In this document: piece after piece, positions 14,604 through 43,837 of the stretch
How the letters are laid out: every line of letters begins with the position of its first letter
How positions within the stretch are numbered: the first letter of the stretch is position 1
Assembly (NCBI GenBank): GCA_964655785.1
Contig: CAZZNP010000002.1
Span: forward strand, 6,727-70,726
Length of the DNA stretch: 64,000 nucleotides
Reading direction: 5' to 3'
Source of the DNA: an uncultured Gemmatimonadota bacterium
GTDB taxonomy: Bacteria; JAAXHH01
Made by a program: the position numbers and the translations under genes
Notes under the pieces: model-generated
The model's input: only the letters and a program-made list of their open reading frames with translations
Database searches by the model: none
What the model was told of the DNA's origin: nothing

Positions 14604-16256
14604 ATGGGGCAAAAAAGAATCCTCCTGATGGAACCCGGGTACCGGAACAAATACCCTCCCCTTGGGCTGATGAAGCTCGCGGCATATCACAAGGCCCGCG
14701 GGGACTACGTAAAGTTCACAAAAGTGGGTTTCGGCAAGGACGAGGGGATGTCATCACTGCTGGAGGCCCCATGGGACAGGGTTTACGTCACTACGCTGTT
14801 CAGCTTTGAATGGAAACGGACAGCCGAGGCCATTGATCGGGCAATCCAGATCGCGGCAATGCAGCCGGAGAGAGTCTTTGTGGGTGGAATCGCCGCCTCT
14901 TTGATGCACGATGACTACCAGAATGAACCCAAGTGGGCTGGAGTCCGGTTCATAAAGGGACTTCTGGTGGGATCACCCGCGGAGTCCCTGAAACTGTCAG
15001 CTGACGATTACGATTTCGGTGCGGATGACCTGTCAGGGCGCCCAATTGAAGAACGGACCCCGGATTACGAGATTCTGTCAGACATCAGCTACACCTACCC
15101 GGTACGAGACGCCTATTTCGGCTACGCATCGAGAGGCTGCGTCCGGAAATGTGCGTTTTGCGGAGTGCCCAAGCTCGAAGGCCCACAGCGTGAAATGCCA
15201 CCCCTGACGGAACTTGTGAATGGAATCGACGCTGCCCACGGGGTCAAGAAGGACATGGTGCTGATGGACAACAACATCACCGCATCCGCCCGATACAAGG
15301 AAGTAATCGCCGAATTGCGGGATCTGGGATTCGAGTCCGGAGCCACAATTACAAATCCTAGCGGCCGGAAAGTGAAACGGCGCGTGGATTTCAACCAAGG
15401 AGTCGACGCCAGAATTCTGGCCAAGTCGCCGATGTACCTCAAGGAAATGTCCAGTATCTGCATCAGCCCGCTACGCATCGCGTTCGATCATATCGGGATG
15501 AAGAAGGTCTACGATGTGGCCATCAGGATGGCGGCAGACAACGAAATCACGTCGCTGTCGAATTACATGCTTTACAACTTTATGGACTCGCCCAGTGACC
15601 TGTATGAGCGAATGAGGCTGAATATTGCACTAAACGAGGAGCTGGGGATCAGGATCTGGTCGTTTCCCATGAGATACCAGCCTGTGACACTCAAGGAGCG
15701 TACTCACGTGGGAAAATTCTGGAACCGATACTACTTGAGATCTTTCCAGATCATGCTCCAGGCAACCCATGGTCTGGTCAGTGGTAATCCGTCTTTCTTC
15801 AGGCGGGCATATGGCGAGGACAAGCACGAATTCGAGCATCTACTCAGCTTGCCCCACGCCTTCATTTTCCACCGGGACCACTACGAATTTGAAGACGGAA
15901 GACCAGTTCTAGATGAATATTTTGGGCACCGCAAACGTTTGTCCGAGAGTCAGGAGAAAGAATTGATCGGATACCTAGCGGGACCGGATGGTGCAATATC
16001 CGGTCTACCAAGGAAGCACTACACGAAGCTGATAAGCGACAGCACGATAGCCCCGGCAATTCGTGAAGTTTTGAGATTCCACACCCTCGATACCAGGCAC
16101 CGGCTTGGTTCCGAGGACAAGAAAATCCTGCCAGTATTTTCACAACTCAATCCTGACCCTGTCATGCCCGAAGAGGATGAACACGTGGAAGACGCTGGCC
16201 TTTACGATGATGATGCAACGCAACAAGACATAAGAGATAAACGCGTAAGCGTCTAA
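14604..16256 (+). CDS. Radical SAM enzyme with an N-terminal B12-binding-like domain (class B rSAM-like)
   Basis: N-terminal ILLMEPGYRNKYPPLGLMKLAAY (B12-binding-domain-like) and the CxxxCxxC cluster YASRGCVRKCAFCGVP. GAGGAGG RBS. Lies in the AT-richer island. Confidence 0.8.
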   Translation: MGQKRILLMEPGYRNKYPPLGLMKLAAYHKARGDYVKFTKVGFGKDEGMSSLLEAPWDRVYVTTLFSFEWKRTAEAIDRAIQIAAMQPERVFVGGIAASLMHDDYQNEPKWAGVRFIKGLLVGSPAESLKLSADDYDFGADDLSGRPIEERTPDYEILSDISYTYPVRDAYFGYASRGCVRKCAFCGVPKLEGPQREMPPLTELVNGIDAAHGVKKDMVLMDNNITASARYKEVIAELRDLGFESGATITNPSGRKVKRRVDFNQGVDARILAKSPMYLKEMSSICISPLRIAFDHIGMKKVYDVAIRMAADNEITSLSNYMLYNFMDSPSDLYERMRLNIALNEELGIRIWSFPMRYQPVTLKERTHVGKFWNRYYLRSFQIMLQATHGLVSGNPSFFRRAYGEDKHEFEHLLSLPHAFIFHRDHYEFEDGRPVLDEYFGHRKRLSESQEKELIGYLAGPDGAISGLPRKHYTKLISDSTIAPAIREVLRFHTLDTRHRLGSEDKKILPVFSQLNPDPVMPEEDEHVEDAGLYDDDATQQDIRDKRVSV

Positions 16257-16278
16257 GAATCAACCCTGAGGAGTTACC

Positions 16279-17757
16279 ATGCCGAAGAACACCGAACCAG
16301 CATCCCTGGTGGGAGCGGATATACTGAACCTGGTTACAACCGGTATGTACCACACCCCACTTGCAATTTACCGGGAATACATTCAGAACTCGGCTGACGC
16401 GGTCGAAAAGTCCAAGTGGCGTGACCAGGGACGAGTAGAGATCTCAATCAATCCAGGAAGCAACAACGTCAAAATCAGGGACAATGGCCCTGGACTGTCA
16501 CCTGAACAGGCAATACGGAATCTGATACCAATTGCGAGGAGTTCCAAGCAGCGCGGTGTAGACCGCGGCTTCAGAGGAATCGGCCGGCTTTCAGGCCTAG
16601 CGTTCGCGGAAAAAGTTACCTTCAGAACGAGAAGCAAGAAAACACAGCCGATAACCGAGGTTTCCTGGGACGGAATATCCCTACGTGCGAATGCTGTCTC
16701 CAATTCGGATCCGGAAAAGATCATCAGAAACTGTGTACAGGTATCGGAAATAGATGACAGTGGATGGCCAAATAACTTCTTCGAAGTGGAGATTGAAAAA
16801 ATATCCAGATATGCGGCGGACAGGATCCTGAACCGAGAAGCTGTCCGAAGATATATTGCAGAGGTGGGGCCGGTTCCCATGTCAGAATCGTTTCCGCTTG
16901 CGAAGGACGTAGAGGCTCTCTTCCCGGATGAAAACAGACTTCTAGCACTGGAAGTCACCTTGGAAGGAGAGGAAGAGCCGATACGGCGCATGCATGGTTC
17001 CGGCCTCAAGTTTTCGGAAGACCGGAAGGATACCTTTAGGGAAATAGAAAGAATCAGAATTCCGGCTGTTGACAGCGAAAAAGATGCAGCAATCGGGTGG
17101 ATCGCTCACACATCATATCTGGGGGCAATCCCAAAAGACATGGGGGTACGAGGGATCCGGCTCAGAGAAGGGAACATACAGATCGGAGATGAAGACGTCC
17201 TAGATCCTCTGTTCAAGGAAGAACGCTTCAACAGGTGGTGCATAGGGGAATTACACGTGATCGATTCACGGCTCCTGCCGAATGGTCGCCGTGATTATTT
17301 CGACCCCAGCCCACACGTGAGACATGTTGAAAATCATCTTGAATCAATCATCCACGGGGTTGTGAAAAGATGTCGGAGTGCTTCATCTAACCGGGTACAG
17401 TCGAGGAAGCTACATACGGTACTGGAACACATGGACAGTGCATATAGTATTGCTGGCTCGGGTTATCTGAAAGCGGCAGACGCCAAGGCCCTCATAGCGG
17501 AAGCCCTGGAAAAATTGCAAGAGCTCGAAGACAACATGCCCGAAGGAGGCCTGATATATCAACAAAACGGGAAAAAGCTAATTGAACTCAAAACGAAACT
17601 GAACGGATTCAAACCAAGGAGAGGCCGGCCGTCCCTGGAAAACGTCCGCAGCGGGGAGGTTGCTACCTACCAGAGAATATTCAGGGCGCTGACGGAATTT
17701 TGCCATTCTCCGGCAATTGCCAAGGAGATGATCGAGGGAGTTCTAAAACACGCTTAG
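16279..17757 (+). CDS. GHKL ATPase (HATPase_c_3 / MORC-like)
   Basis: N-box REYIQNSADA, G1 box IRDNGPGLS and G2 box FRGIGRLSGLAF. 22-nt gap after the rSAM gene; same strand and composition. Confidence 0.75.
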   Translation: MPKNTEPASLVGADILNLVTTGMYHTPLAIYREYIQNSADAVEKSKWRDQGRVEISINPGSNNVKIRDNGPGLSPEQAIRNLIPIARSSKQRGVDRGFRGIGRLSGLAFAEKVTFRTRSKKTQPITEVSWDGISLRANAVSNSDPEKIIRNCVQVSEIDDSGWPNNFFEVEIEKISRYAADRILNREAVRRYIAEVGPVPMSESFPLAKDVEALFPDENRLLALEVTLEGEEEPIRRMHGSGLKFSEDRKDTFREIERIRIPAVDSEKDAAIGWIAHTSYLGAIPKDMGVRGIRLREGNIQIGDEDVLDPLFKEERFNRWCIGELHVIDSRLLPNGRRDYFDPSPHVRHVENHLESIIHGVVKRCRSASSNRVQSRKLHTVLEHMDSAYSIAGSGYLKAADAKALIAEALEKLQELEDNMPEGGLIYQQNGKKLIELKTKLNGFKPRRGRPSLENVRSGEVATYQRIFRALTEFCHSPAIAKEMIEGVLKHA

Positions 17758-17825
17758 CACAGTAGTTCCTGACTCGTGGTTCACGAGTTAATAAAACACC
17801 AATTCACCCCCAGGTAGTCGATTGC

Positions 17826-20132
17826 ATGGACAAAGAATATCTAACACCCATCATTGCAGGAGACGAGATCACGTCTGAACTTAGGCGAAGACGTAGCAAG
17901 GATAGATTTCAAACGATTAAAGCGACGAATAAAAGCCGTCTTGCTGAGAAAGTAAAGCTGGAAACGGAAGAAGGATGGAAAGTAGCAAAGAAAAACAAAA
18001 AATCTACCCGAATGGCGAAGGAAAAGCCGGGCGATGAACAACTGGAGGATGAAATCTGGTGCATGCTTGCACGGATGGGATTCAAGGAATTGAGCCATGG
18101 TCGTCAGTTCACAGTATCGGTAAGAGACGGCCAAAATCCAAGACAGATCGACGTATTCGCCAAGGATGACGAGACAACAATAATCGTCGAATGTACGCAT
18201 AGAAAAACACCAGGAAGAAAAAACATGTCCTCCCTGATTGAAAAGATACAGGCTATTAGAGGGGATACGATCAATTCAATCCGTAAGCACTATGGGAGGG
18301 AGAGTGCACTGAAGTTCGGGGCAGTAATCGCCACAAGGAATATAGATTGGAGCGAGGCCGATCTTGAGAAATGTGCAAATGCAAGAATTAGCGTACTTAC
18401 GGACGGTGAGATTGACTACTATAACGCATTGATAGCGCATCTGAAAAAAGCCGCCCGCTACCAGTTCCTCGCACATATCTTCGGAGGACAGAAAATTGAA
18501 GGACTGGTTACCACAGTACTCGCGACACGTGGAAAAATGGGGGGAAATTATTTTTATACATTCATGGTGAGTCCGGACGCACTTTTAAAAATTGCATATG
18601 TAGGACACAAGGCAAGCAGGGATACAGAGAACATAGAAACATATCAACGAATGCTGCAATCAAATCGGTTAAGGAAAATCGCGGAATACATTAATGAAGG
18701 TGGGAAATTTCCCACCAATATCGTCTTGAACCTGAAAACTAAGAAGAGGAACGACCTAAGATTCGAAGTGATCGAGAAACTTGGTAATGAAGCTCTCGGA
18801 AAATTGCATCTTCCACCGAATTACGCATCTGCTTGGGTCATCGATGGACAACACCGCCTCTATGGATACGCATATGCACGAGAAGGCGAAGGGTTCAAAG
18901 CGGACAAGACTACTCTACCCGTTTTGGCGTTTGAGAATCTGCCGTCAAAAGATGAAATGGACCTGTTCATCGATATTAACAGCAAGCAGGTAAAGGTAAG
19001 CACTAGTTTACTTGTGGAGCTCTATGCCGAGCTACACTGGGGCTCAGATGATTCCGATGAAGCATATGAAGCACTCTTGTCCAGGATAGCGTCAAAACTG
19101 AATTCCGAAAAAACGTCACCTCTTCGTGACAGAATGGTTGTCAGTGGAAAAAAGAAGACACCACACAGATGTCTGACACAAACGTCAATACGTGATGGAC
19201 TTGAAAAAGCTAAATTGATCGGATCCATGACAAAAGACGGATTCATCCCGGGACCTCTATCAACAGGCAAGCAAGACGCAAATCAGGAGCATTTAAAAAA
19301 GAGCGTATCAGTTCTGTCTGCCTGTCTGAATTTGTTTGCCGAACAGCTCAATGATCACTGGAATACAGGAGATGGCCCGGGTGGATATTTATGCACCAAT
19401 ATCGGAGTCAGAGCCATCTTTCATGTGATCAAGGACATAGCTGATCATTATCATCAAAAAAGTGGACATAACCTTTGTTACCTATCAACTGATGAAACAA
19501 TATCTACATTATCGCCATATTTACAAATATTGGTTGATTATTTCAAAGATGCATCCCCTCAGGAGATTCAGGATTTTAGGGGGATAGGATCTTCATTGGT
19601 GGCGGTTCGAAAACAATCATTCGGAATGGAAGCCCAAATTAACGAAAAAATAAATGAATTTTGCCCTGTAGAACTCAGAGAGTACCTAGATTCAAGGGAT
19701 GAAGCAGGAACACATGATGCGACAATATTGGTTAATCAAATACATTCGAAACTTTCAAAATATGTCATTGATACTTTGAAAAAAGAACACGGAGAAGAAA
19801 ACAAGGCATGGTGGACATTAGGAATCCCTAAAAATATTAGGATCGAATGCGCTAAGAAATGGGAAGAAGAAAACCGTAAAGGAGAGGAAGAAGGACAGCT
19901 ATTGTTGATCAACTACAAAGATATATGTCTCTTGAATTGGGAATTATTCAAGGACGTAATATCATTCGACGCTAGAGATAAAGAAAATAAAAGAGAAAAC
20001 ATAAAATGGATAATTGAATTGAATGAGATAAGAAGAATAACAGCCCATCCAGAAAGGGGAGTTCTAAATAAAGAGCAAGTGATAAAAGTCAATGAGATTT
20101 ATGAAAAACTGATTGAATATTTACCAGAATAA
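17826..20132 (+). CDS. DGQHR-domain (DndB-like, ParB-fold) protein with a possible N-terminal PD-(D/E)xK-like domain and a C-terminal HEPN-like Rx4H motif
   Basis: Exact DGQHR motif in WVIDGQHRLYGYAYA at the protein centre. The N-terminal region IDVFAKDDETTIIVECTHRK resembles a restriction-endonuclease-fold motif. C-terminal NEIRRITAHPERG fits the HEPN Rx4-6H signature. 768 aa, lowest G+C in the window. Confidence 0.7.
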   Translation: MDKEYLTPIIAGDEITSELRRRRSKDRFQTIKATNKSRLAEKVKLETEEGWKVAKKNKKSTRMAKEKPGDEQLEDEIWCMLARMGFKELSHGRQFTVSVRDGQNPRQIDVFAKDDETTIIVECTHRKTPGRKNMSSLIEKIQAIRGDTINSIRKHYGRESALKFGAVIATRNIDWSEADLEKCANARISVLTDGEIDYYNALIAHLKKAARYQFLAHIFGGQKIEGLVTTVLATRGKMGGNYFYTFMVSPDALLKIAYVGHKASRDTENIETYQRMLQSNRLRKIAEYINEGGKFPTNIVLNLKTKKRNDLRFEVIEKLGNEALGKLHLPPNYASAWVIDGQHRLYGYAYAREGEGFKADKTTLPVLAFENLPSKDEMDLFIDINSKQVKVSTSLLVELYAELHWGSDDSDEAYEALLSRIASKLNSEKTSPLRDRMVVSGKKKTPHRCLTQTSIRDGLEKAKLIGSMTKDGFIPGPLSTGKQDANQEHLKKSVSVLSACLNLFAEQLNDHWNTGDGPGGYLCTNIGVRAIFHVIKDIADHYHQKSGHNLCYLSTDETISTLSPYLQILVDYFKDASPQEIQDFRGIGSSLVAVRKQSFGMEAQINEKINEFCPVELREYLDSRDEAGTHDATILVNQIHSKLSKYVIDTLKKEHGEENKAWWTLGIPKNIRIECAKKWEEENRKGEEEGQLLLINYKDICLLNWELFKDVISFDARDKENKRENIKWIIELNEIRRITAHPERGVLNKEQVIKVNEIYEKLIEYLPE

Positions 20133-21148: not shown

Positions 21149-21691
21149 CTACAGCAGCCGATAGATGCTGGCCCGGCTAAGTTCATACTTTTCCGCTAGG
21201 TCCCGGATCCGGACGCCGGCGGCGCGCTCACGGCGAAGCTCGGCAACCTGGCCCTTGGTGAGTTTCGAGGGAGGGCCGAATCGCACCCCCTCGTTACGGG
21301 CCCTCGAGATTCCTTCCGCCTGGCGCTCTTTCCGGAGGTGCACCTCGAACTCGGCGACAGCGGCCAGTATCCCGAATACGAGCTTGCCGGCCGAGGTCGT
21401 GGTGTCGATCGCCTGGTCGAGCACGACGAAGCCGACGTCGTTTTCCTGCAACTGCTCGAGGATCCGGTGCAGGTCCAGGGTAGAGCGCGCCAGGCGGTCG
21501 AGACGGGTGATCACCAGAACGTCGCCGCGGCGGACGAACCGGAGACATTCCTTCAGCGCCGGCCGGGCCGCGGTCCGTCCGGAGCGTTTCTCCTGGAAGA
21601 TCTCATCGCAGCCGTATTCCTGGAGTTTCTCGAGCTGCAGGTCCAGGTTCTGTCCGATGGAGCTGACCCGGGCATATCCCACTGTCGCCAT
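21149..21691 (-). CDS. Serine recombinase (resolvase/invertase, Hin-Gin-Tn3 resolvase family)
   Basis: N-terminal catalytic VGYARVSSIGQNLDLQ, the RLDRLAR motif and a C-terminal HTH (GVRIRDLAEKYELSRASIYRLL). Confidence 0.85.
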   Translation of the reverse strand: MATVGYARVSSIGQNLDLQLEKLQEYGCDEIFQEKRSGRTAARPALKECLRFVRRGDVLVITRLDRLARSTLDLHRILEQLQENDVGFVVLDQAIDTTTSAGKLVFGILAAVAEFEVHLRKERQAEGISRARNEGVRFGPPSKLTKGQVAELRRERAAGVRIRDLAEKYELSRASIYRLL

Positions 21692-22956: not shown

Positions 22957-25900
22957 TCAGTCAAACAGATCACGTCCCCCATGTGTAGGGGGCCCGGTTT
23001 CTACCGGCACTGCCTGATCCGGCAGCAAGCCGGAGACGATCTCCTCGATTTCCCGGCCAGCGTCACTTGAGTGGACAGCGGCTCGAATCGCCTTTGATAT
23101 GCCAACCTGGCTCATCCCGGGTTTCCCTGCAAGGGCTTCACTGGCTGCCTCCTGTGCCAGTTTCTCGGTTTCCTCGCACAGCTTCGCCAGTCGCCGGTGT
23201 TGATCGATATCTTTGTTGAAACAGGGTATCGGGACCTTCCACCACGGATGAAGATGAAAGTCCCTGCCGCTCCCTCTGCATTGCCTGAAGGCCGTTTCCA
23301 GGCATGCGGCATTCAGCAGGGCAACCAGATATCCGGCTTCTTCCTTGTCCCGCACAGCCATCCAGTAAAGTTTCGAGCTCACAACAAAATTGCCAGTCGT
23401 TATCCTTGCAGCCCGCATGATGTCCCCGGAGGTTGGATAGAGAACAATCCATCCGTTGGTGTTTTCAGAGTCGAGTTGTGCCGACAGCTTTGACTGGAAA
23501 TCGAATTGCTTAAGTAAGGCCTTCGGCGTCGATTTCCCCTTTCCTGCCCTGCTTTCGTAGATCTCGTCCAGTTCACGCCAGAATGAACATTCATTGCCGG
23601 GGTTCTCAAGCAAGAATCCCTTTGTGTCCACCGGCACGATGCCCTTCACAGGCCGCACCGGGGGGATGTACGCCACCATCTCGGTTGAAGTAAGAACCGG
23701 ACGTACCCAGTGTGCCGGCATCAATCCGGTCTGGGGCCTGACCTCTTTCCACGGTTCCTTTGTCGATCGCATTGTCGTGACACGGACCATGCCTTCATGA
23801 TTCGGTCCTTCGATTTCATCCAACAGCGCAAGCACGTGGGGAACCAGTGTCGCGCCCTGCTTAATCATGACCGAATTCAGATATCCGGACTTCTTCTGCG
23901 GAAGCTGGGCGGGAGCCTCGCTGAATCCGAATTTCCGCCTGGCCGATTCCAGGGACTCTGATGACTTCGGACGTACGCCCCTGACCTTCAGCCGGGCTTC
24001 CAGTGTGCCGGGGCTGATGCCTTCGGATATATCGAACGCACAGTGCTCCATCAGTAGGCAACTGCGGGTTGCATCACCGCTACCGAATGGCTGCAACTGC
24101 TCCAGGTCGACCGATTGCCGCAAGGTGTTTCGATGAACTGACCGGAACGGCTCCCATTGCCCAGCAGCGATGGCGGATTTCTTCACCAGCCAGGATGCGG
24201 GGTTGCTCTCCGGTTTGGCCATGTAAAGCTTCCTGGCCGCCAGAATGAAATAGCTGGCGATATCGGAGTGAGGGGCCTGTTTCCCGGCACCGGTCAGACC
24301 CAGAGACCTGCCGTACTGTTCCAGAGTTCTCTTCCGGTCCGTGGCCTGTATCTCCGCCAGCTTCACCCAGGGTGGATTGGCCACGATCCGATCGACCTTT
24401 TTCTGTGCCAGAAGGTGGGGAGCGGCGATGTTGATCGTGTACCAGGTCCAGACCGAGTTGCCCTCGGCAGCAATGATCTCGGTCAGGGCCTGGTGGCAAT
24501 GTTCCAGCCGCTCGGATTCCACTTCCGACAGGGATTCCTTCAGGAACCCGGGCAATGGTTGACCCGCGGTCGCGGCACTGACAATCTCACGCATGTCGTT
24601 GGCAAACGTCCCTCTCCGGACGAATTTCATGGGGACCCGTATCTCCCTTTTTTCCGGAGTCTCGACCCTCATCAGGTCCTCGGTGTGTTCGAACAGGGAC
24701 TTCTGGTTTCCGGAATCGGCCTGCAGAGAATCACCCAGGTGCACCTGGAACGACTGGCCGCCCATGGTCGGCGGCGCCGGCAGGATCCTCTCCAGGTTCA
24801 CGCGTGCGAGTTCCACTGCCACGGGATGGATGTCGATCCCGTTGACCAGGCGTGAAACGATGTCGGCCCGCTGCACCGGTGTGAATGACTGCATTGACTT
24901 TGACGCCAGCAAACGGCGGGCCGCATGGAGAAGGAACGTGCCGGAACCGCAGGTGGGGTCGAGAACCCCGACTCCCCGAACTTCCGTACCACCGCGGATG
25001 GAGGCTATCGCGGCATTGATGGCCCGCTCCATCCATTGCTCGTCGAGAACCTCCTCCACCATCAGTGCAGCCAGCCAGTCCGGGGTGTAGAATTCACCGA
25101 AGACCTTCCGATCATGCGCGCTCACGTTATGATGGTACAGGCTGCGCAGGACATCTTCCTCGCGCCTCCGCCAGTCGTACGAGGTAACAAGCCTGTACAG
25201 TTTCCCTGCCCACTTCCGCCCACGCTCGAATTCCAGCACCCATGCGGCGAAACCATCACGTACCGCCGTCTTCCAGTCCGAACCCGAATTGGCCGGAAAC
25301 AGGGAGTGGGAAACCAGGCGGACCACTGCGATCAGGAAGCTGTGGGTGACGAACAGCCTGTCCTTCCCGGCTTCGTCGCCGGGAACCATGCCGGACGTTC
25401 GCATCATGTCCAGCCAGAGATCCCTTTTGGTCCGGGTAGGTCCTGCTGCATTAGCGGGAAGCGCAGCGTAAAGGCTGAAGAGTTCATTCCTGAGGGAGGT
25501 GAAGAGTGCTCCCGGATCCCCCGGTATCCACTCCTTGCCGAAATTCCTTTCGGCCAGAAGCGAGTGGAGGAATTCGGCCAAGGGAAGGGCCTCGTTCATG
25601 AATCTCAGGGGCGATCCGACAGGTTCCCCGATGGATTGAGGCCGATGGCTGTATTCATACACGTGCCAGTGCCGGCCGTCGGTCACAATGCCCACCCAGT
25701 TGCTCCGGACGAACTCAACGTCGTCGAAGGGAATCCTGCCCAATTCCCGGTTGATCTCGCCGATGACGTAACGGTCCAGCTGTTGCCGCGGCGACTCCGA
25801 CAGCCTTCCTTGCTGGGGTTTGTCAGGCTCTGCCGCCAGCGGATATGCCTTCAGCTCGATGAATGTCCTGCGATTGGGCAGATAAATGTCCGCCTCGCCG

Positions 25901-26067
25901 TCAACAGTCGTGTAGTGGGATTCGATCGACCCGACCTTGATTTCCCGAAGCAGGGCCTCAAGATCGGACTGCAGGTTGCCTTCCCTTTCGTGCCGCTCAA
26001 GGGGGTGGTTGAGAAACGCGGATGCAGCATCGAGGACTGCCTGACCCGGTGGCTTGCCCCGGGTCAT
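22957..26067 (-). CDS. Type IIG (MmeI-like) restriction-modification enzyme: N-terminal PD-(D/E)xK nuclease, gamma-class N6-adenine methyltransferase and C-terminal target-recognition region
   Basis: N-terminal D-x10-ELK (GEADIYLPNRRTFIELKAY). MTase motif I GVLDPTCGSGTFLLHAA and motif IV IVANPPWVKL. A 1036-aa single polypeptide. Confidence 0.8.
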   Translation of the reverse strand: MTRGKPPGQAVLDAASAFLNHPLERHEREGNLQSDLEALLREIKVGSIESHYTTVDGEADIYLPNRRTFIELKAYPLAAEPDKPQQGRLSESPRQQLDRYVIGEINRELGRIPFDDVEFVRSNWVGIVTDGRHWHVYEYSHRPQSIGEPVGSPLRFMNEALPLAEFLHSLLAERNFGKEWIPGDPGALFTSLRNELFSLYAALPANAAGPTRTKRDLWLDMMRTSGMVPGDEAGKDRLFVTHSFLIAVVRLVSHSLFPANSGSDWKTAVRDGFAAWVLEFERGRKWAGKLYRLVTSYDWRRREEDVLRSLYHHNVSAHDRKVFGEFYTPDWLAALMVEEVLDEQWMERAINAAIASIRGGTEVRGVGVLDPTCGSGTFLLHAARRLLASKSMQSFTPVQRADIVSRLVNGIDIHPVAVELARVNLERILPAPPTMGGQSFQVHLGDSLQADSGNQKSLFEHTEDLMRVETPEKREIRVPMKFVRRGTFANDMREIVSAATAGQPLPGFLKESLSEVESERLEHCHQALTEIIAAEGNSVWTWYTINIAAPHLLAQKKVDRIVANPPWVKLAEIQATDRKRTLEQYGRSLGLTGAGKQAPHSDIASYFILAARKLYMAKPESNPASWLVKKSAIAAGQWEPFRSVHRNTLRQSVDLEQLQPFGSGDATRSCLLMEHCAFDISEGISPGTLEARLKVRGVRPKSSESLESARRKFGFSEAPAQLPQKKSGYLNSVMIKQGATLVPHVLALLDEIEGPNHEGMVRVTTMRSTKEPWKEVRPQTGLMPAHWVRPVLTSTEMVAYIPPVRPVKGIVPVDTKGFLLENPGNECSFWRELDEIYESRAGKGKSTPKALLKQFDFQSKLSAQLDSENTNGWIVLYPTSGDIMRAARITTGNFVVSSKLYWMAVRDKEEAGYLVALLNAACLETAFRQCRGSGRDFHLHPWWKVPIPCFNKDIDQHRRLAKLCEETEKLAQEAASEALAGKPGMSQVGISKAIRAAVHSSDAGREIEEIVSGLLPDQAVPVETGPPTHGGRDLFD

Positions 26068-27562: not shown

Positions 27563-27931
27563 TCACCGGCCGCCCCGGTGATTTCTTGCCGGCCTGATCC
27601 GAACACGGTTTCGGGTGATGACGATGATTGTGCCTGTCTGCATTTCGTGCGCATGATGTTCGATGAGGTCCCGGATGGCCGCCGCTTCGCCGGCGACGCC
27701 CAACCCTTCGAACCGAACAATACAGGGAAGGGGCTGCCGGAGAGGGGACGGAAATTCCCCGAAGGTCCCGTCCGGGGTGAGAACCACGCGCCTCTCCCGG
27801 GACGCGAGGTCAAGCAGGGCCCGGTCGGAGGCTGCATATCCGGCCCGAACCGCAAGGGCGTCATGGCCGAGGCCGTCCAATGTCTCTTGCAGAACACCCG
27901 ATGCGGCACACACATCGAGAAGGAACTTCAC
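27563..27931 (-). CDS. DUF5615-family (Mut7-C/PIN-like) putative toxin
   Basis: MKFLLDV...VLTPDGTFGE... pattern. 4-nt overlap with the upstream DUF433 gene. Confidence 0.6.
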   Translation of the reverse strand: MKFLLDVCAASGVLQETLDGLGHDALAVRAGYAASDRALLDLASRERRVVLTPDGTFGEFPSPLRQPLPCIVRFEGLGVAGEAAAIRDLIEHHAHEMQTGTIIVITRNRVRIRPARNHRGGR

Positions 27932-28185
27932 AGGTCATCCCGAAAGGGGATACGCTCATATACATGGTCGCCGGTCATCGACCGGTGGACGAACAGCAGG
28001 CATGCCCGGATATCCTCGGGTTCCAGAAACGGGTATTCCCGGAGAATTGTTTCGTCCGTATCGCCGGCAGCCAACTTTCCGATGATGTGTTCCACGGCGA
28101 CCCGCATGCCGCGGACGATCGGTTTGCCGCCGAAAATCTCGGGGTTCACGGTAATGCGTTGCAACAGATCAGTTTCCTGCGTCAT
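27928..28185 (-). CDS. DUF433-family putative antitoxin
   Basis: NPEIFGGKPIVRGMRVAVEHIIGKLAAGDTDETILREYPFLEPEDIRACL is the classic DUF433 signature. Confidence 0.7.
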   Translation of the reverse strand: MTQETDLLQRITVNPEIFGGKPIVRGMRVAVEHIIGKLAAGDTDETILREYPFLEPEDIRACLLFVHRSMTGDHVYERIPFRDDL

Positions 28186-30277: not shown

Positions 30278-33200
30278 TCATCGCCGGGCACCACAACGGT
30301 TGATAATTTCGGAACTAAGGCTGAAGCACAGACGCGGGCCACAGGTAAGGATCAAAGGATTCAGGTGAGGCAAGGTATACTGCTGTGGCTGCTGAATGTT
30401 TCTGCCATAAAAATTGGCTCCGTTCGGTCCAACCACTTCGTAGATACTCCAGATTCCGCATGACGACCCTGAGTCAGCAAAAAACAGCAGTTCATTGATG
30501 TTGTAAACGGAAGAATCGCTGCAGTCTCCGGGTTGTGTGTGACTGTAACTGGCATAATCCAGTCCTCTACGCTGGGTGACGCCCACGGAAACCCGGATTC
30601 CCATGCTGTAATCCCAGGTTTCAGCCCCGCAAAATGCAGTGCATGTACTGGCATTCCAACCTGCTCTCGGATCCAGGTCGTCCGGACGTGGGCATACTGG
30701 TGGCGGCGCCGCGTCGTTGTCCCGGACGGTGACGGACGCAGACGAACGCGATCCCACGGTGTAACCGCTTCCGACGGCGATCAGAGCCCCGACCTGCCCG
30801 TCCGGCTCGTCGTTCGCATCATCCACGGTGGGAACGGAGTACGTGACAACTGTGTGCCTAGCGGGAAGAGTAACGGCGTTCGGTCCTTCGACGGACGATG
30901 CCAGGAAATCCGAAGTCGCGTCATCCGACACGGTCAGGCCAATGACGATGGGCGCGGCGGATCCCAGGCTGGCCTCGAGGGTGAATACCGCATTGCCACC
31001 TTCGGTGACGGGGACACCGCCCCTGATGCTGATTTCAGGCGTGCTTGGGGGCGCCGCGTCATTGTCCCGGACGGTGACGATGGCGGACGACGGGGAGCCT
31101 GTCGTGAAGCCGCTGCCGCCCGTGATCCTGGCCGAGACCTGGCCGTCCGGCTCGTCGTTCGTATCATCGATGGTGGGAACGGAGTACATAGCGATCGTGC
31201 TCCCTGCGGGCAGCGTGACGGTACTGGGGCCTTCGGTCGAAGACGCCAGGTAATCGGAAGTGGCGTCATCGGAAACATTCAGGCCGATAGTGATTGCCGC
31301 GGTGGACGTCCGGTCGGCCGTGACGGTGAAGACCGCGTTACCGCCCTCGGTCACCGAGACGCCCCCGCGGATGGTGATTACGGGCAAGACAGGGGACGCC
31401 GCGTCATTGTCGTGGACGGCGACGGTGGCGGACGACGGGGAGCCTGCCGTGTAGCCGCTGCCGCTCGCGATCCTGGCCGAGACCTGCCCGTCCGGCTCGT
31501 CTGCACTGTCGTCCTCTGTGCGTACGGAATACGTGGCCGATCTTGCTCCCGCCGGAAGTGTGACGGACTTGCGCCCCTCGCTGGTCGATGCCAGGAAATC
31601 GGAAGCGGCGTCATCCGAGACGTCCAGGCTGACGCTGATGGCCGTGGCGGATGCCCGGCTGGCACGCAGGGTGAACGCCGCAGTGCCGCCCTCGGTGACA
31701 GCACTGCCCCCGGTAATGGTGATTGCGGGTATCGCCGGCAGCGGCGCATCGTTGTCCCGGACGCTGACGTACGCGGACGAGGGAATACCGGTGGTGTAGG
31801 AGGAGCGCCCGGTAATCCGGACAGTGACCCGCCCGTCCGGTTCATCGGTGGTGTCATCCACCGTGGGCACGGAATACCGCACCGTCGTGGCCCCTGCAGG
31901 AAGGGTCACGCTTCGGTGACCCTCGCTGGACGATGCCAGGAAATCGGAGGTGGAGTCATCCGAGACGTCCAGGCTGACGCTGATGGCCGTGGTGGAGGCC
32001 CGACTGGCCCGCAGTGTGAACACCGCGTTGCCGCCCTCGGTGACGGCGCTGCCCCCGGCGATGGTGATTACGGGCTTGACGGACGGCGCCGAATCGTTGT
32101 CCCTGACGATGATGGACGCGGAGCGCGATCCGATGGTGTAGCAAGGGGAACCGACGATGCGCACCGTGATGATCCCATCCGGCTCGTCGACGCTGTCGTT
32201 TTCCGTGAGCACGGCGTACGTGGCCGATCTCCCCCCCGCCGGCAGGCTGACGGTCTTGCGGCCTTCCGCGGACGCTGCCAGGAAATCGCCCGAAGCATCA
32301 TCCGAAACGTCCAGGCTGACGCTGACGGCCGAGGCGGACGTCCTGTTCGCCCGTATGGTGAACGAGGCCCTTCTTCCCTCGACGATCGCACCGTGGCCGC
32401 CGATGCTGATCACGGGTTTCGGGGACGGCGTTCCGGGGCAATCGTTGTCGCTGATGCCGACGGACGCGGATTCGGGCGCGTAGGGGACATAGCCGGATCC
32501 GCTCAGGACGCGCGCGGTGACCTGCCCGTCCGGTTCGTCGATGGCGTCATCCACCGTCGGCACGGTCCAGGTGACGGAGGAGGTCCCGCCGGGGAACGTG
32601 ACGGTCTTCCTGCCTTCGTCCCCCGCCGCCACGAAATCCGCCGACGCATCGTCCGAAACGGAAAGCGCGACGGTCGCCGCCGAGGAAAAGGGAACCGTGG
32701 GCCTGAGCGTGAAAACCGCATTGCCGCCTTCCGTGACCGCACTTCCTCCGGTGATGGAGACGCCGGGCACGGCCGGGGGCAGCGTCGGAGGCGGGAGCGT
32801 GTCCGTCGGGCTCCAGGCGACGCAGGACGGGACGCCGCCGCTGATGGCGAGCAGCTGGTCCGGACTGCAGTTGAGGCCCGCCAGCCGGACGAGGAACCGG
32901 GCGCGGTCCCGGTCGAGGACCTCCCCGCCGATGACGAGCCGCTCGTTGATCAGGAATCTGTCGACGTCCTCGATATCGTTGCCGCCCAAATTGAGATCGC
33001 CGGCCATGTCCCGGGTGCCGTCCCGGACGAGCAGTTCCTGGACCCGGTCGCCGGGCTCGTGTCCGGGGATCGGGATCTCGATCTCGACGACGGATGTCGT
33101 CCCCGCCCTCGCCTGCCCGGGAAATTCGGATCGCACCTCGGCGGCGAGCCGTGCATCCAGCAGGTCGGTCCGGATGACGATCGGCAACGTCGGGTGGTTG

Positions 33201-33553
33201 GGCGGTGTTGGCGCATCCAGTTCAAGCAACTGCCCCACGCCGTTGCGGGCGTTGGCCGCCAGGACCGGGGCCAGGGCGGAGAGGTCGGACATGGAGGAAG
33301 GCCAGGTGTTGTTGTTCTCGAGGCGCCAGGAATACAGAACCTCCGCAGTTGCGATGATGATATCACGGGTGCTGTCGACCTTTGCTTTCTCCAGTTCGCC
33401 GAGTTCCCTGTGGTACCAGGCGGCGACCATGAGGGACACGACCAGGGCCGCGCCGGTGGCGGCGAGCAGGGCGAAACCGCGCTGCCGGCCGAGCGGGCCG
33501 GTGGAGCCGGTTTCGATGTTGCGGGACACGGATGGGTCATGTGATGGTTTCAT
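30278..33553 (-). CDS. pilV: PilV-like type IVb minor pilin/adhesin, long variant with eight Calx-beta-like repeats and a Cys-rich C-terminal domain
   Basis: N-terminal region paralogous to the upstream short PilV-like protein (MKPSHDPS...RGFALLAATGAALVVSLMV, then ...EIEIPIPGHEPGDRVQELLVRDGTRDMAGDLNLGGNDI...). Eight ~100-aa repeats each contain ...TEGGNAVFTL...SDD..SDF...VP(T/I)(V/I)DD..DEPDG.V(T/S)(A/V)R. The ORF-track N-terminal extension to 34132 was rejected because it overlaps the upstream gene. Confidence 0.6.
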   Translation of the reverse strand: MKPSHDPSVSRNIETGSTGPLGRQRGFALLAATGAALVVSLMVAAWYHRELGELEKAKVDSTRDIIIATAEVLYSWRLENNNTWPSSMSDLSALAPVLAANARNGVGQLLELDAPTPPNHPTLPIVIRTDLLDARLAAEVRSEFPGQARAGTTSVVEIEIPIPGHEPGDRVQELLVRDGTRDMAGDLNLGGNDIEDVDRFLINERLVIGGEVLDRDRARFLVRLAGLNCSPDQLLAISGGVPSCVAWSPTDTLPPPTLPPAVPGVSITGGSAVTEGGNAVFTLRPTVPFSSAATVALSVSDDASADFVAAGDEGRKTVTFPGGTSSVTWTVPTVDDAIDEPDGQVTARVLSGSGYVPYAPESASVGISDNDCPGTPSPKPVISIGGHGAIVEGRRASFTIRANRTSASAVSVSLDVSDDASGDFLAASAEGRKTVSLPAGGRSATYAVLTENDSVDEPDGIITVRIVGSPCYTIGSRSASIIVRDNDSAPSVKPVITIAGGSAVTEGGNAVFTLRASRASTTAISVSLDVSDDSTSDFLASSSEGHRSVTLPAGATTVRYSVPTVDDTTDEPDGRVTVRITGRSSYTTGIPSSAYVSVRDNDAPLPAIPAITITGGSAVTEGGTAAFTLRASRASATAISVSLDVSDDAASDFLASTSEGRKSVTLPAGARSATYSVRTEDDSADEPDGQVSARIASGSGYTAGSPSSATVAVHDNDAASPVLPVITIRGGVSVTEGGNAVFTVTADRTSTAAITIGLNVSDDATSDYLASSTEGPSTVTLPAGSTIAMYSVPTIDDTNDEPDGQVSARITGGSGFTTGSPSSAIVTVRDNDAAPPSTPEISIRGGVPVTEGGNAVFTLEASLGSAAPIVIGLTVSDDATSDFLASSVEGPNAVTLPARHTVVTYSVPTVDDANDEPDGQVGALIAVGSGYTVGSRSSASVTVRDNDAAPPPVCPRPDDLDPRAGWNASTCTAFCGAETWDYSMGIRVSVGVTQRRGLDYASYSHTQPGDCSDSSVYNINELLFFADSGSSCGIWSIYEVVGPNGANFYGRNIQQPQQYTLPHLNPLILTCGPRLCFSLSSEIINRCGARR

Positions 33554-33567
33554 GGGTCTGGTCGGGA

Positions 33568-34425
33568 TCATGGCGATGTCGGCGGACAGGCGGGCGGCGG
33601 CGGACAGGGAGGGCACGGGCAGAGCGCGCCGCAGGTCGCACAGGACGGGGACCAGCAGGACGCCGTGGTGCCGCTGATGGTCACTCCGGTGGCGCAGCCG
33701 AGGCCGGCCGCGCCGTTCAGGAAACGGACGATGTTCGGGGAGACGGGATTGCCGCCGATCTCGACTTCGGTGTTGACGCGCACCTCTTCGGCGTTGCTGA
33801 TGTCGTTGGTTGCAAGGCCGAGGTCCCCGGTCATGTCCCGGGAGCCGTCGAGGCGAAGGAGCGAGTCCCTGGCGGGCTCGTGTCCCGGGACGGGAACCTC
33901 GATGGATACGACGCTCCCGGTCCTTGTCGCCAGGCCCAGGAACTCCCGCTCGAGGAGTTCGGCGAAGTCCGCATCCTCCATGTCCGTCTCGATGACGATG
34001 GGGGCGTTCGAAGTCGCCGGCGTCGGCACACGGAAGGAGTATGGCTTGCCAACGCCGTTCCGGCCTCCCGGGGGCGTGGTATTGGCGAAAGCGGGTGCGT
34101 AGGCGGCCAGGGCTGCGAAGTCGGCGGGCCATGCAGCCGGCTCCGGTGGCGTCTGCGATGGAAATTCGCTGATGCGGTATGCGGAAACGGCCTCGGCCAG
34201 GATCAGCATGCCCGCCCGGGTATTGTCGATCTGTGCGCTGGCGAGGGACCGGTCGAGTTCCCGGGTGAACAGACCCACCAGCATGGCGGTCACGAACAGG
34301 ACGGCGGTCGCCTCGATGAGGCTGAAGCCGCCTTGACGGGAAAGGAGGGAAAGGCGGAATCGGTACGGGTCGGCCGTGGACTGACCAACCGGCGATGCGC
34401 CGGTGCTGGGGTGGCTCCGGTTCAT
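33568..34425 (-). CDS. pilV: PilV-like type IVb minor pilin (short variant) with a prepilin-type N-terminus
   Basis: Prepilin cleavage/methylation motif QGGFSLIEATAVLFV. The central domain ...SIEVPVPGHEPARDSLLRLDGSRDMTGDLGLATNDI... is shared with the long variant. Confidence 0.65.
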   Translation of the reverse strand: MNRSHPSTGASPVGQSTADPYRFRLSLLSRQGGFSLIEATAVLFVTAMLVGLFTRELDRSLASAQIDNTRAGMLILAEAVSAYRISEFPSQTPPEPAAWPADFAALAAYAPAFANTTPPGGRNGVGKPYSFRVPTPATSNAPIVIETDMEDADFAELLEREFLGLATRTGSVVSIEVPVPGHEPARDSLLRLDGSRDMTGDLGLATNDISNAEEVRVNTEVEIGGNPVSPNIVRFLNGAAGLGCATGVTISGTTASCWSPSCATCGALCPCPPCPPPPACPPTSP

Positions 34426-42658: not shown

Positions 42659-43837
42659 TCAGTCTCTGGACGCACCGAATGCGCCGACGATGGAACCGTG
42701 CTCGAACACGCCGCCGGCCCCCTGGTGCCGGTCGCCGTAAAACCAGCCATCGAGCCGGCTGTCCGTGGAATCGGACGAGAACGAGCCATGAAGGACCGGG
42801 AGATCACGCCATTCCATGTCATCGACCGTAGCGTCCGAGCCCAGCGTCCGGATACGCGGCCGGATTCCGGTGAAGGAGACATCAACCGAGGGTTCGTCGA
42901 AATCTTCCAGGGTGATCAGGGCCCGCCCGGATACGGCTCCGCCGCCCCGGGAATCCATGCCGACCATCGCCCCGGACCAGCTGGCGGCCCCGTCGAGTTC
43001 CTTTGGATCCGTGCCCGGGAAATGCGGCACCCACGAGATCCCCATCACATCCCCGTCCCCGCCGGGATCCACCACCGCGAATGCGCTCCCGCCGTCCCAC
43101 GCGCCCCAGGCCGTGGCGTCCATGGCGTCTTCCGCGTCTTCAGCACTTTCGGCCACCTCAGGATCGTACTGCCGAACATCCTCCCGGGCGTCTTCCGGCG
43201 GCAGCAGACCCTGCAGGTCGTTCTCAGTGACATGGGTGACCAGAAAATCCGGAGTTGCGCTTCCCAGGCGCTCCCCGTCACGCCAGTCCCAGGGCGCAAG
43301 ATGCCGGCCGGCATGGACCCCCCGCCCCCTGTCCCTTGCCGCCTTCTCCTCCTCGCCGTAATCCGGACGGGAACGGGGGTCGTTGACGGCATGGCCATCA
43401 CGGACCAGGGCCGCACCGAATTCCACGCCGCCGGCGGAGCATGACCCCACGATCCGGTCGTAGCTTCTCTGTCCGGAGTCCGTGCAGCTGACGGTACCAG
43501 CCGAGACCAGCTCCTCGAGGGCCTCCGTCGCGGCCTGCCCGCAGGCCCATTCCATGCCGTCGGCATCCAGGCACGACTGGTCGCTTTCGGGTGCGTCTAA
43601 ACCCCGCAGCCTCCAGCGGTCTCCGCCGAGTTCGATGGTGTCGCCATCGATCACGCGGATTTCCGGGGATTCTTCCATGGATTCGTCTGCCTGGCACTCG
43701 CCCCAGCAGGCGCCTTCGAACGAGCCCCCGCAGGAAACGAGCAGCGCACCCAGCGCCGTCACGCAGGCAATACGGCCAGCTGCCGCCGGTTTCATGTTCA
43801 TAGGGTTGCCTCGCTTGTCTTCTGTGTCATATTTCAA
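42659..43837 (-). CDS. Secreted lipoprotein with an N-terminal thermonuclease (SNase-like) domain fused to a TbpB-like C-terminal beta-barrel handle domain
   Basis: Signal peptide and lipobox MKPAAAGRIACVTALGALLVSCGG. SNase motifs IRVIDGDTIEL, RLRGLDAPESDQ and ...YGEEEKAARDRGRGVHAG. C-terminal RLDGWFYGDRHQGAGGVFEHGSIVGAFGASRD parallels the lipoprotein at 29076-29906. Confidence 0.65.
   Translation of the reverse strand: MKYDTEDKRGNPMNMKPAAAGRIACVTALGALLVSCGGSFEGACWGECQADESMEESPEIRVIDGDTIELGGDRWRLRGLDAPESDQSCLDADGMEWACGQAATEALEELVSAGTVSCTDSGQRSYDRIVGSCSAGGVEFGAALVRDGHAVNDPRSRPDYGEEEKAARDRGRGVHAGRHLAPWDWRDGERLGSATPDFLVTHVTENDLQGLLPPEDAREDVRQYDPEVAESAEDAEDAMDATAWGAWDGGSAFAVVDPGGDGDVMGISWVPHFPGTDPKELDGAASWSGAMVGMDSRGGGAVSGRALITLEDFDEPSVDVSFTGIRPRIRTLGSDATVDDMEWRDLPVLHGSFSSDSTDSRLDGWFYGDRHQGAGGVFEHGSIVGAFGASRD

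Follow-up and report, generated by a model that had tools for sequence, protein, structure and literature searches.

The window, i.e., the whole stretch of 64,000 nucleotides analysed (contig CAZZNP010000002.1 of an uncultured Gemmatimonadota bacterium), contains on its minus strand two adjacent genes, pilV1 and pilV2, which come last among the pilin genes in the type IVb pil operon of a conjugative element. The first encodes a short PilV-like minor prepilin and the second a much longer prepilin, in which a pilin-like N-terminal domain is followed by a stalk of six tandem repeats, modelled with a Calx-beta fold, and by a Cys-rich head (Table 1). Two complete tandem genes had been predicted from the sequence, and both open reading frames (ORFs) were found to be intact; the feature is real and biologically coherent, and its original reading was right in outline. 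Beyond that reading, it was found that the long paralogue has lost the glutamate at position +5 (Glu5), that two alternative head types exist, and that the head and a downstream lipoprotein gene have been exchanged together.

Gene pair and operon

The pilV2 gene lies 3' of pilV1, and its start overlaps the pilV1 stop codon in the sequence ATGA. The mechanical ORF call for pilV2 extended from 30278 to 34132, and the plausible ATG at 33571 gives a protein of 1097 amino acids (aa), close to the ~1090 aa first estimated. The third-position GC content is 0.83 for pilV1 and 0.76 for pilV2, and the neighbouring genes are alike. The two proteins are paralogs that align over 241 aa with 39% identity (E = 2e-36) and have in common the motifs IE(V/I)P(V/I)PGHEP, DG(S/T)RDM(T/A)GDL and NDI, which, together with the leaders present in both, bears out the common prepilin N-terminus and core described originally. 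The pilV1 protein consists of a leader, a pilin-like domain with PGHEP and DGSRDMTGDL..NDI, a Cys-Cys loop and a Cys/Pro-rich tail of 28 aa. This conserved tail (CWSPSCATCGALCPCPPCPPPPACPPTSP, window positions 33568-33655) stands where pilV2 has its stalk and head, and could form disulfides or bind a metal. The Cys-rich C-terminal domain predicted for pilV2 corresponds to its last 138 aa, with eight cysteines.

Both proteins start with a class III signal, i.e., a long polar leader with positive charge and a terminal Gly, after which come Phe and a stretch of about 20 hydrophobic residues. The cleavage region of pilV1 reads ...SRQGG and then FSLIEATAVLFVTAMLVGLF (FSLIEATAVLF), with Glu at +5, and that of pilV2 reads ...GRQRG and then FALLAATGAALVVSLMVAAW (in a longer version, FALLAATGAALV), with Ala at +5. 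Pfam N_methyl matched pilV1 weakly, below the cut-off (E = 0.0034), and did not match pilV2. The pilin fold, with a long N-terminal alpha1 helix packed on an antiparallel beta-sheet, was found. Both prepilins are probably cleaved after the leader Gly by the adjacent A24 peptidase.

The gene for this peptidase (Pfam A24_N_bact, E = 1.2e-20; Peptidase_A24, E = 8.2e-20) sits directly upstream of the pilin pair, as it does in every related locus. A 151-aa ORF separates it from the gene for a PilS-like major prepilin (Pfam N_methyl, E = 4.7e-5), the leader of which ends in ...HRFAG before FSLVE, with Glu at +5, and the position of which relative to pilV is as in R64. Further upstream lie genes for a T2SSE ATPase and a secretin, the best match of the latter being the PilN type IVb family. 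The order of the identifiable genes (secretin, ATPase, major pilin, peptidase and, after the peptidase, the two pilV-like genes) is that of R64 pilN-O-P-Q-R-S-T-U-V. Additionally, MPF_G signature genes were identified (TraC_PFL_4706, with 826 bits, and TIGR03746, 03749, 03752, 03755, 03756 and 03757), and the element is an MPF_G integrative conjugative element (ICE) of the PAPI-1/PFGI-1 kind, hosted apparently by a sponge-associated bacterium. The conjugative-pilus context of the original prediction was confirmed by this type IVb pil operon and its MPF_G surroundings.

Table 1. Positions of the gene pair, its parts and associated genes, numbered in the window unless a related locus is named.
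Feature	Position	Strand	Remarks
pilV1, short PilV-like minor prepilin, 285 aa	33568-34425	minus	ORF call
pilV2, long prepilin, 1097 aa	30278-33571	minus	from ATG overlapping pilV1 stop
pilV2 leader peptide, aa 1-32	33476-33571	minus	...GRQRG then FALLAATG; Ala at +5
pilV2 pilin-like N-terminal domain, aa 33-268	32768-33475	minus	pilV1 paralogue; ends in Cys loop CSPDQLLAISGGVPSC
pilV2 stalk, aa 269-959	30695-32767	minus	six tandem 115-aa repeats, modelled Calx-beta fold
repeat r1	32423-32767	minus	unit coordinates
repeat r2	32072-32416	minus	unit coordinates
repeat r3	31730-32074	minus	unit coordinates
repeat r4	31385-31729	minus	unit coordinates
repeat r5	31040-31384	minus	unit coordinates
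repeat r6	30695-31039	minus	unit coordinates
pilV2 head, type A, Cys-rich, aa 960-1097	30278-30694	minus	8 Cys; stop codon included
surface lipoprotein, 276 aa	29076-29906	minus	lipobox LAGC; C-terminal TbpB/Slam-lipoprotein-like barrel ending SGSFGASR
small ORF, 81 aa	34422-34667	minus	one hydrophobic helix and charged helical tail; stop overlaps pilV1 start (ATGA)
prepilin peptidase, A24 family, 374 aa	34737-35861	minus	
PilS-like major type IV prepilin, 180 aa	36441-36983	minus	
lipoprotein gene, locus L025	8142-9179		
lipoprotein gene, locus L027	6818-7642		
lipoprotein gene, locus L028	6963-7793		
lipoprotein gene, locus L029	6742-7779		
type B lipoprotein gene, locus L006	11971-13434		
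type B lipoprotein gene, locus L007	11913-13445		

Stalk repeats, head and linked lipoprotein gene

A short and a long gene in tandem directly after the peptidase were found in at least nine independent loci (L001/L002, which are the same element, L004, L006, L007, L008, L024, L025/L026, L027, L028 and L029). The related loci belong to metagenome-assembled genomes of Candidatus Poriferihabitaceae, Arenicellales and other Gammaproteobacteria, with Methylophaga as more distant relatives; no other contig encoding the exact pilV2 protein was found. In two Methylophaga loci, L016 (6925-9038) and L022 (6928-9029), tandem PilV-like paralogs of ~350 aa were observed, both with Glu5 and with differing C-terminal halves, and an Azotimanducaceae locus, L019 (7470-9667), has two adjacent ORFs of the family with unassignable prepilin signals. 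Tandem duplication of a pilV-like gene is common, and both Glu5 loss and stalk are, in these comparisons, specific to Poriferihabitaceae-type elements.

The repeat unit of pilV2 was determined by Tandem Repeats Finder, which gave a period of 345 bp, i.e., a unit of 115 aa. Six copies of the peptide motif DEPDG occur 114-117 aa apart, and the DNA block GAYGARCCGGAYGG is present in exactly six copies spaced by 342-351 bp (chance expectation 0.01). Eight repeats of ~100 aa had been proposed, a count corrected by all three measures to six of 115 aa. The identity between pairs of repeats is 46-71% in protein and 60-74% in DNA, and the longest exact DNA run between units is 38 bp (r3/r4), with 21 bp or less in all other pairs. 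The repeats are old, diverged duplications and a poor substrate for frequent homologous recombination; of the similarity at the DNA level noted originally, the recurring block was confirmed, and the similarity between whole units is modest. The number of repeats, six in the window, is 5, 4, 4, 4, 5, 4, 5, 3 and 3 in the homologs; most of these share an orthologous repeat 1, and the internal repeats cluster partly by lineage. The suggested change in length is therefore seen among relatives, which have from three to six repeats, whereas rapid length switching by recombinational expansion or contraction is unlikely because the repeat DNA has diverged.

The fold of the repeats was not evident from curated families. 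Pfam Calx-beta (PF03160) scored 14.5 bits for a window repeat (E = 0.038) and 16-17 bits for related repeats, with a cut-off of 27, and gave no match to the whole pilV2 protein in the Pfam scan. LapA (PF20579) scored above Calx-beta, with 25.2 bits against a cut-off of 27, and PKD_4 was also sub-threshold. Direct membership in the Shufflon_N, Calx-beta, LapA, PKD and NCBIfam families was rejected, every match being below cut-off. When a profile of the six repeats was searched against PDB sequences, no Calx-beta structure was found and the sole match was the C-terminal domain of a protein-asparaginase (9xg1, E = 6e-4); a fold search was therefore needed to see the relationship. Repeat r6, modelled from a 33-sequence alignment with predicted local distance difference test (pLDDT) values of 91-98, is a seven-strand sandwich, and its first 26 Foldseek matches in the PDB were all NCX/CALX Ca2+-binding domains or the integrin beta4 Calx-beta domain. 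The top matches were to NCX1 CBD1 (2dpk, E = 1.9e-6), CBD1 and CBD2 of CALX and integrin beta4, with target template modelling scores of 0.66-0.72 for single-domain targets. As modelled, the repeats have the Calx-beta fold.

The Ca2+ sites were compared with those of NCX1 CBD1, the sequence of which was confirmed against PDB entries and the Ca2+ ligands of which include E385, D446, D447, E451 and D498-D500 (PMC3386913). By hhalign, D73/D74 of the repeat are equivalent to D446/D447, E78 to E451, D80 to D453 and D107-N108-D109 to D498-D499-D500; E13 was paired with the ligand E385 by manual alignment alone. The repeat positions paired by hhalign, D80 among them, are invariant in the six window repeats and in 33 related repeats, and it is likely that Ca2+ would be bound at each domain end, stiffening the array. 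The description of the repeats as Calx-beta-like is upheld by the fold and by the conserved Ca2+ ligand positions, but the Pfam cut-off is missed. Large surface proteins of 1000-1900 aa that are not pilins are filled with close relatives of the repeats (E per domain as low as 1e-46), and the few named matches include sponge-associated taxa (Poriferisodalis and 'SB0668' metagenome bins). The repeat module may have been recruited from a pool of such large surface proteins.

The head starts at a conserved junction, CPRPxxLDPRAxW. It had no Pfam match and a single weak match in a PDB sequence search (E = 0.064), and a homolog search with the head alone missed even P0001-P0005, which do have the head, because of the limits of the word index. 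Two head types were found, type A of ~138 aa and type B of 163-170 aa, alignable only over their first ~25 residues (CPRPxxLxPxAxW...C...CG). The parts of pilV2 differ widely in their conservation between elements. Relative to the window, P0006 is 87% identical in the N-domain and has a type B head that is unalignable, and P0002 is 74% identical in the N-domain and 97-100% in the head. The window head is 95-98% identical to those of L024 and L025, the repeats of which are 67-69% identical to those of the window; for L025, the backbone is ~90%, the head 95% and the lipoprotein 92% identical. In L027, the backbone identity is 50-75%, and head and lipoprotein are both at 83%. In DNA, the identity between the window and L024 rises from 57-65% in the last repeat to 97-100% at ~30700 and remains high past the stop codon to the contig end. 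The corresponding block in L025 runs from ~30700 to ~29100 and comprises the head, the spacer and the whole downstream gene, after which homology ends; the identity is 93-99% over the head and lipoprotein gene and 83% over the last ~100 bp of that gene. This block is far more conserved than the adjoining repeats. The pieces of pilV2 do not have one common history, and the head has been swapped between elements at the stalk/head junction, with a sharp breakpoint. The head is presumed to be the receptor-binding tip.

The gene exchanged with the head encodes a surface lipoprotein with sub-threshold matches to Pfam TbpB_B_D (E = 3.6e-5) and NCBIfam slam_lipo (E = 3.9e-4). It is present after every type A head for which downstream DNA was available (the window, L025, L027, L028 and L029). 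For type B heads, L006 and L007 were examined, and there another lipoprotein takes this place; it is 487-510 aa long, contains HExxH and has a C-terminal barrel of similar type. No lipoprotein was called downstream in L004, which like L008 is a three-repeat locus. Each of the two unrelated head types is accompanied by a lipoprotein of its own, one of which has an HExxH metalloprotease motif, and the exchange of head and lipoprotein together is, of the leads from this analysis, the most promising one. As a tentative proposal, to which we assign a low probability, head and downstream lipoprotein might be a cognate 'mating specificity cassette' exchanged by ICEs as a unit, the lipoprotein giving matched surface exclusion or kin recognition. 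The head would then recognise a recipient structure that the lipoprotein on the donor surface would mask, modify or mimic.

Relation to PilV and proposed place in the pilus

The relationship to PilV was evaluated by several searches. Among 72,556 plasmids, tblastn of pilV1 found only two Methylophaga prepilin genes (27-34% identity over 42-68% of the query) and no IncI or other annotated PilV. In a search of 1.84 billion representative proteins, a profile built from the shared domain found 1029 relatives with E up to 0.001, 151 of them with E up to 1e-10. A family hidden Markov model (HMM) was built from 118 members, namely those of up to 530 aa among the best 150 profile hits; 65 of these match Pfam N_methyl and one matches Shufflon_N (E = 1.4e-4). 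The HMM gave 30.5 bits, with high bias, for R64 PilV, and the alignment covers the N-terminal helix, the motif KMHTAIDMGSNNLNNVG (MxxxIDMGSNNLNNVG) and the Cys loop. The R64 motif pairs with M(T/A)GDL(D/N)(L/M)GGNDIxNV of the pilV1/pilV2 family, and the R64 Cys loop pairs with CSPDQLLAISGGVPSCVAW in pilV2; in pilV2, this loop is the end of the shared domain, with the repeats directly after it, and in R64 PilV it occupies residues ~341-364 of 474, in front of the C-terminal part. Similarly, when R64 PilV was run by phmmer against a set of 243 sequences, five members of the family were matched (E = 3e-7 to 1e-5). From these results, pilV1 and pilV2 appear to constitute a separate family outside the curated one, remotely related to PilV and in the same operon place.

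The most conserved motif of the family (PGHEP ... DGxRxMxGxLdMGGNxIxN) lies at window positions 33790-33920 in pilV1 (residues ~170-215) and 32960-33060 in pilV2, in a low-confidence part of the monomer model. Its DGxRxMxGxLdMGGNxIxN part is found in up to 17 copies in long proteins that are not pilins and that also match T7 tail-fibre, T4 gp9/10 and YadA-stalk models. Speculatively, this part might act in oligomerisation or as a fibre neck within the tip complex.

A shufflon was considered and rejected. No family of sfx-like inverted repeats was found, tblastn of type A, type B and short-form heads found no silent head cassettes elsewhere in the window, and no recombinase was found beside the pil genes. 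Among the ORFs scanned, no tyrosine recombinase was identified near the pil genes, and the only recombinase identified was a serine resolvase ~9 kb away. The original claim of two genes in place of a shufflon agrees with these searches. To our knowledge, PAPI-1 PilV2 also lacks a shufflon, which is therefore not a universal feature of PilV. The C-terminal segments of PilV of R64 and PAPI-1 bind recipient lipopolysaccharide, and recipient binding by PilV in R64, TP114 and PAPI-1 stabilises liquid mating and sets the recipient range (PMC5297154, PMC9045228).

The residue at +5 distinguishes the short from the long gene at every locus of this group. It is A, G, T, V or I in all ten long homologs and E or D in every short partner or pilV1 ortholog. 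Of 143 top family hits that were screened, ~100 have Glu5, which is about three quarters of the hits in which a prepilin signal could be recognised. According to Ng et al. (2016), most type II secretion systems (T2SS) and type IV pili (T4P) have only one minor pilin with a hydrophobic residue at +5 (PMC5207764). This pilin is much larger than the others, has its gene at the 3' end of the cluster, and was proposed to carry the signature of the first subunit of the nascent filament (PMC5207764); the absence of Glu5 would bar its incorporation anywhere except at the tip (PMC5207764; similar logic in PMC9934059). The pilV2 protein shows all three features, with Ala at +5, a length of 1097 aa next to 285 and 180 aa for the other two pilins, and the last pilin gene of the operon, whereas neither sequence homology to GspK nor its structural hallmark (the alpha-domain insertion) was found. 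Mainly because of these three features, pilV2 is inferred to lie most likely at the very tip, with pilV1 beneath it.

Our preferred reading, held with moderate confidence, is that the pair are minor pilins capping a conjugative type IVb pilus, pilV2 being a tip adhesin for recipient recognition and pilV1 lying below it. In this model, the A24 peptidase would cleave both prepilins, leaving a processed pilV2 of ~1065 aa. As Glu5 lets a pilin dock under an earlier-added subunit, pilV2, lacking it, could only be the first, so that it would start the filament and stay at the tip. Its pilin domain would plug into the filament and the six Calx-beta domains would form a stalk, with an estimated length of roughly 25-30 nm, which would probably be stiffened by Ca2+ loaded at the domain junctions outside the cell. 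The stalk would hold the disulfide-rich head of 138 aa off the filament, and the head would most likely bind a structure on the recipient surface, stabilising liquid mating as PilV does in R64, TP114 and PAPI-1. With its Glu5, pilV1 would most likely sit directly under pilV2 as an adaptor to the PilS filament, and it may also cap pili alone. Specificity would not be switched by a shufflon; over evolutionary time, it would change as repeats are gained or lost and as recombination at the stalk/head junction replaces the head along with the lipoprotein gene.

Several observations weigh against this proposal. Pfam Shufflon_N (PF04917) matched neither pilV1 nor pilV2, even at E up to 10, and hhalign of a ten-sequence family alignment (A1) with R64 PilV gave a probability of 5.7%, over the N-terminal helix only, so that the homology to PilV would rest on the broader profile and short motifs. 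The term PilV-like of the original prediction is retained in view of the remote profile match and the pilV position in the operon, but it does not extend to a Shufflon_N match or a firm pairwise alignment of profiles. R64 PilV keeps Glu5 (Gly followed by WASLE), and loss of Glu5 is therefore not a PilV trait. The models are poor in two relevant regions, namely the most conserved motif region of pilV1 (residues 184-226, pLDDT < 50) and the head (AF2 with six sequences, pLDDT < 50). Repeats related to those of the stalk occur in many large non-pilin surface proteins, and the purpose of stalk and head could thus be adhesion to a host or matrix instead of mating. Finally, expression, cleavage, pilus incorporation and binding are inferred for the whole family, and a subunit with a predicted length of 1065 aa would have to pass through this secretin.

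Around these genes, a few further features were observed. The 81-aa ORF upstream of pilV1 was called in L001-L003, has a partial match in L006 and is absent from the other loci, i.e., it is limited to close relatives, and a family search gave no match. The pil operon also includes a gene for a 392-aa protein with a staphylococcal-nuclease-like domain (42659-43837, minus), which is placed between the secretin gene and the pil gene that follows and is found in L001 as well. A DUF433/DUF5615 pair (27563-28185, minus), likely a toxin-antitoxin-type module, is located ~0.9 kb downstream of the lipoprotein gene. A scan for promoters and terminators from 28.8 to 37.2 kb performed no better than on shuffled sequence. 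Elsewhere in the window, a region at 16000-20000 has a GC content of 0.42-0.50, compared with ~0.65 elsewhere, and a strong AT skew, and is flanked by a radical-SAM-like gene (14604-16256) and the gene of a serine resolvase (21149-21691); this island is probably a separate insertion. Cargo or maintenance genes encode a 1036-aa N6-adenine methyltransferase of the Eco57I/MmeI type (22957-26067, minus) and a 1532-aa Strawberry-notch-like helicase (13-4611, minus), and a ParB-like protein is encoded at 8319-10448.

Alternative explanations and significance

Four other explanations were weighed. It is possible, though unlikely, that pilV1 and pilV2 are alternative adhesins, each capping its own pili and binding different recipient structures, as a hard-wired, co-expressed equivalent of shufflon variants. 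The Methylophaga pairs of L016 and L022, which both keep Glu5 and differ in their C-terminal halves, would fit this idea, as would the two family ORFs of L019 and some single-copy relatives (P0096-P0100), which are short pilins that have a Cys-rich head themselves. However, pilV1 has no head domain, only its Cys/Pro tail of 28 aa, and the strict pairing of a short protein with E or D at +5 and a long protein with a non-acidic residue, at every locus of the group, points to complementary positions in the pilus. Somewhat less likely still is that pilV2 is mainly a host-, matrix- or biofilm-binding adhesin, with the pilus as a scaffold for attachment to sponge tissue or neighbouring cells. The close relatives of the repeats in large non-pilin surface proteins, named ones including Poriferisodalis and 'SB0668' bins, and the affiliation of the related loci with Candidatus Poriferihabitaceae and Arenicellales genomes are in its favour. 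Nevertheless, pilV2 is embedded in, and start/stop-overlapped with, a pil operon inside a conjugation module, and its counterparts in R64, TP114 and PAPI-1 serve mating; the adhesin and mating roles are also compatible.

A contingency locus, in which frequent recombination of the repeat array would alter the stalk length within a population, is considered very unlikely. Homologs vary from three to six repeats, the clustering of internal repeats by lineage (e.g., r2-r4 of P0008) suggests lineage-specific duplication, and in elements with a ~90% identical backbone the repeats are the most diverged part (67-69%), but the identity of only 60-74% between the repeat DNAs and the short exact runs (38 bp in one pair, 21 bp or less in the rest) speak against this view, and no copy-number variants are seen in the other assemblies of the identical element, as these end within the array. 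That pilV2 is a non-functional pilin, either a duplicate in decay or a protein whose uncleaved N-terminal helix keeps it in the inner membrane, as the lack of Glu5 and of a Pfam N_methyl match might suggest, is highly improbable given its intact, full-length presence in at least nine independent assemblies, its third-position GC content like that of its neighbours, the conserved start/stop overlap or close spacing with pilV1, and the conservation of the leader Gly, Phe at +1, N-domain motifs, Ca2+-site residues of the repeats and eight head cysteines. The model of a tip complex of pilV2 and pilV1 fits the Glu5 asymmetry, the conservation and the divergence of the repeats better than each of these rivals.

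Compared with known systems, pilV2 resembles PilV of IncI1/IncI2 plasmids (R64, TP114) and PilV2 of PAPI-1 in that its gene follows the peptidase gene as the last pilin gene in the type IVb pil operon of a conjugative element. The layout is also similar, with a pilin N-domain, an MxGxLdMGGNxIxNV-type motif, a Cys-Cys loop and a variable C-terminus, which is the carrier of specificity in the known systems. The differences are that there are two genes here and not one and that a Shufflon_N match, a shufflon and a Rci-type recombinase are lacking; pilV2 has also lost the Glu5 that R64 PilV keeps and has a stalk of six Calx-beta domains between pilin domain and head. The variation found here is an exchange of heads between elements, whereas that of shufflon PilV is an inversion within one element. 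Like pilV2, the GspK-family or first-subunit minor pilins of T2SS and T4P are the sole pilins without Glu5, greatly exceed their partners in size and have their genes at the 3' end (PMC5207764, PMC9934059). CofB and TcpB of enteric type IVb pili are, similarly, single large minor pilins with a pilin domain followed by beta-rich C-terminal domains, located at the tip and involved in assembly initiation (PMC5207764). With its N-domain, six Calx-beta modules and head, pilV2 is built as a modular pilin; PilB and PilC of Streptococcus sanguinis likewise carry grafted adhesive modules, including an Ig-like spacer and a binding module, at the tip, with a Glu5-less partner (PMC9934059). Unlike in S. 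sanguinis, the pilin that bears the modules, pilV2, is also the one that lacks Glu5, repeats in variable number serve as the spacer, and the pilus is a conjugative type IVb one of a diderm. The stalk shares with Calx-beta and LapA-type adhesins (NCX1 CBD1/2, integrin beta4, large RTX-type proteins) the seven-strand sandwich, the acidic Ca2+ positions and the use as a tandem extender; unlike these proteins, its repeats fall below both Pfam cut-offs and have a type IV pilin as their fusion partner, in place of an exchanger, integrin or type I secretion substrate.

The choice of recipient cells for DNA transfer in liquid is made by conjugative type IVb pili, and it has so far been known chiefly from PilV of IncI plasmids, which is switched by a shufflon, and from PAPI-1, with its single PilV2. 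The locus described here would represent a different solution, in which a modular tip pilin without Glu5 carries a variable stalk of Ca2+-binding type and a replaceable head and is accompanied by a paralogue that bears Glu5. It offers a natural test, in a type IVb system, of the rule that a Glu5-less subunit caps the filament, and the junction CPRPxxLDPRAxW is a defined site for engineering the recipient range. Together, head and lipoprotein constitute a candidate adhesin-plus-exclusion pair, and the locus bears on the spread of mobile elements among uncultured sponge symbionts.

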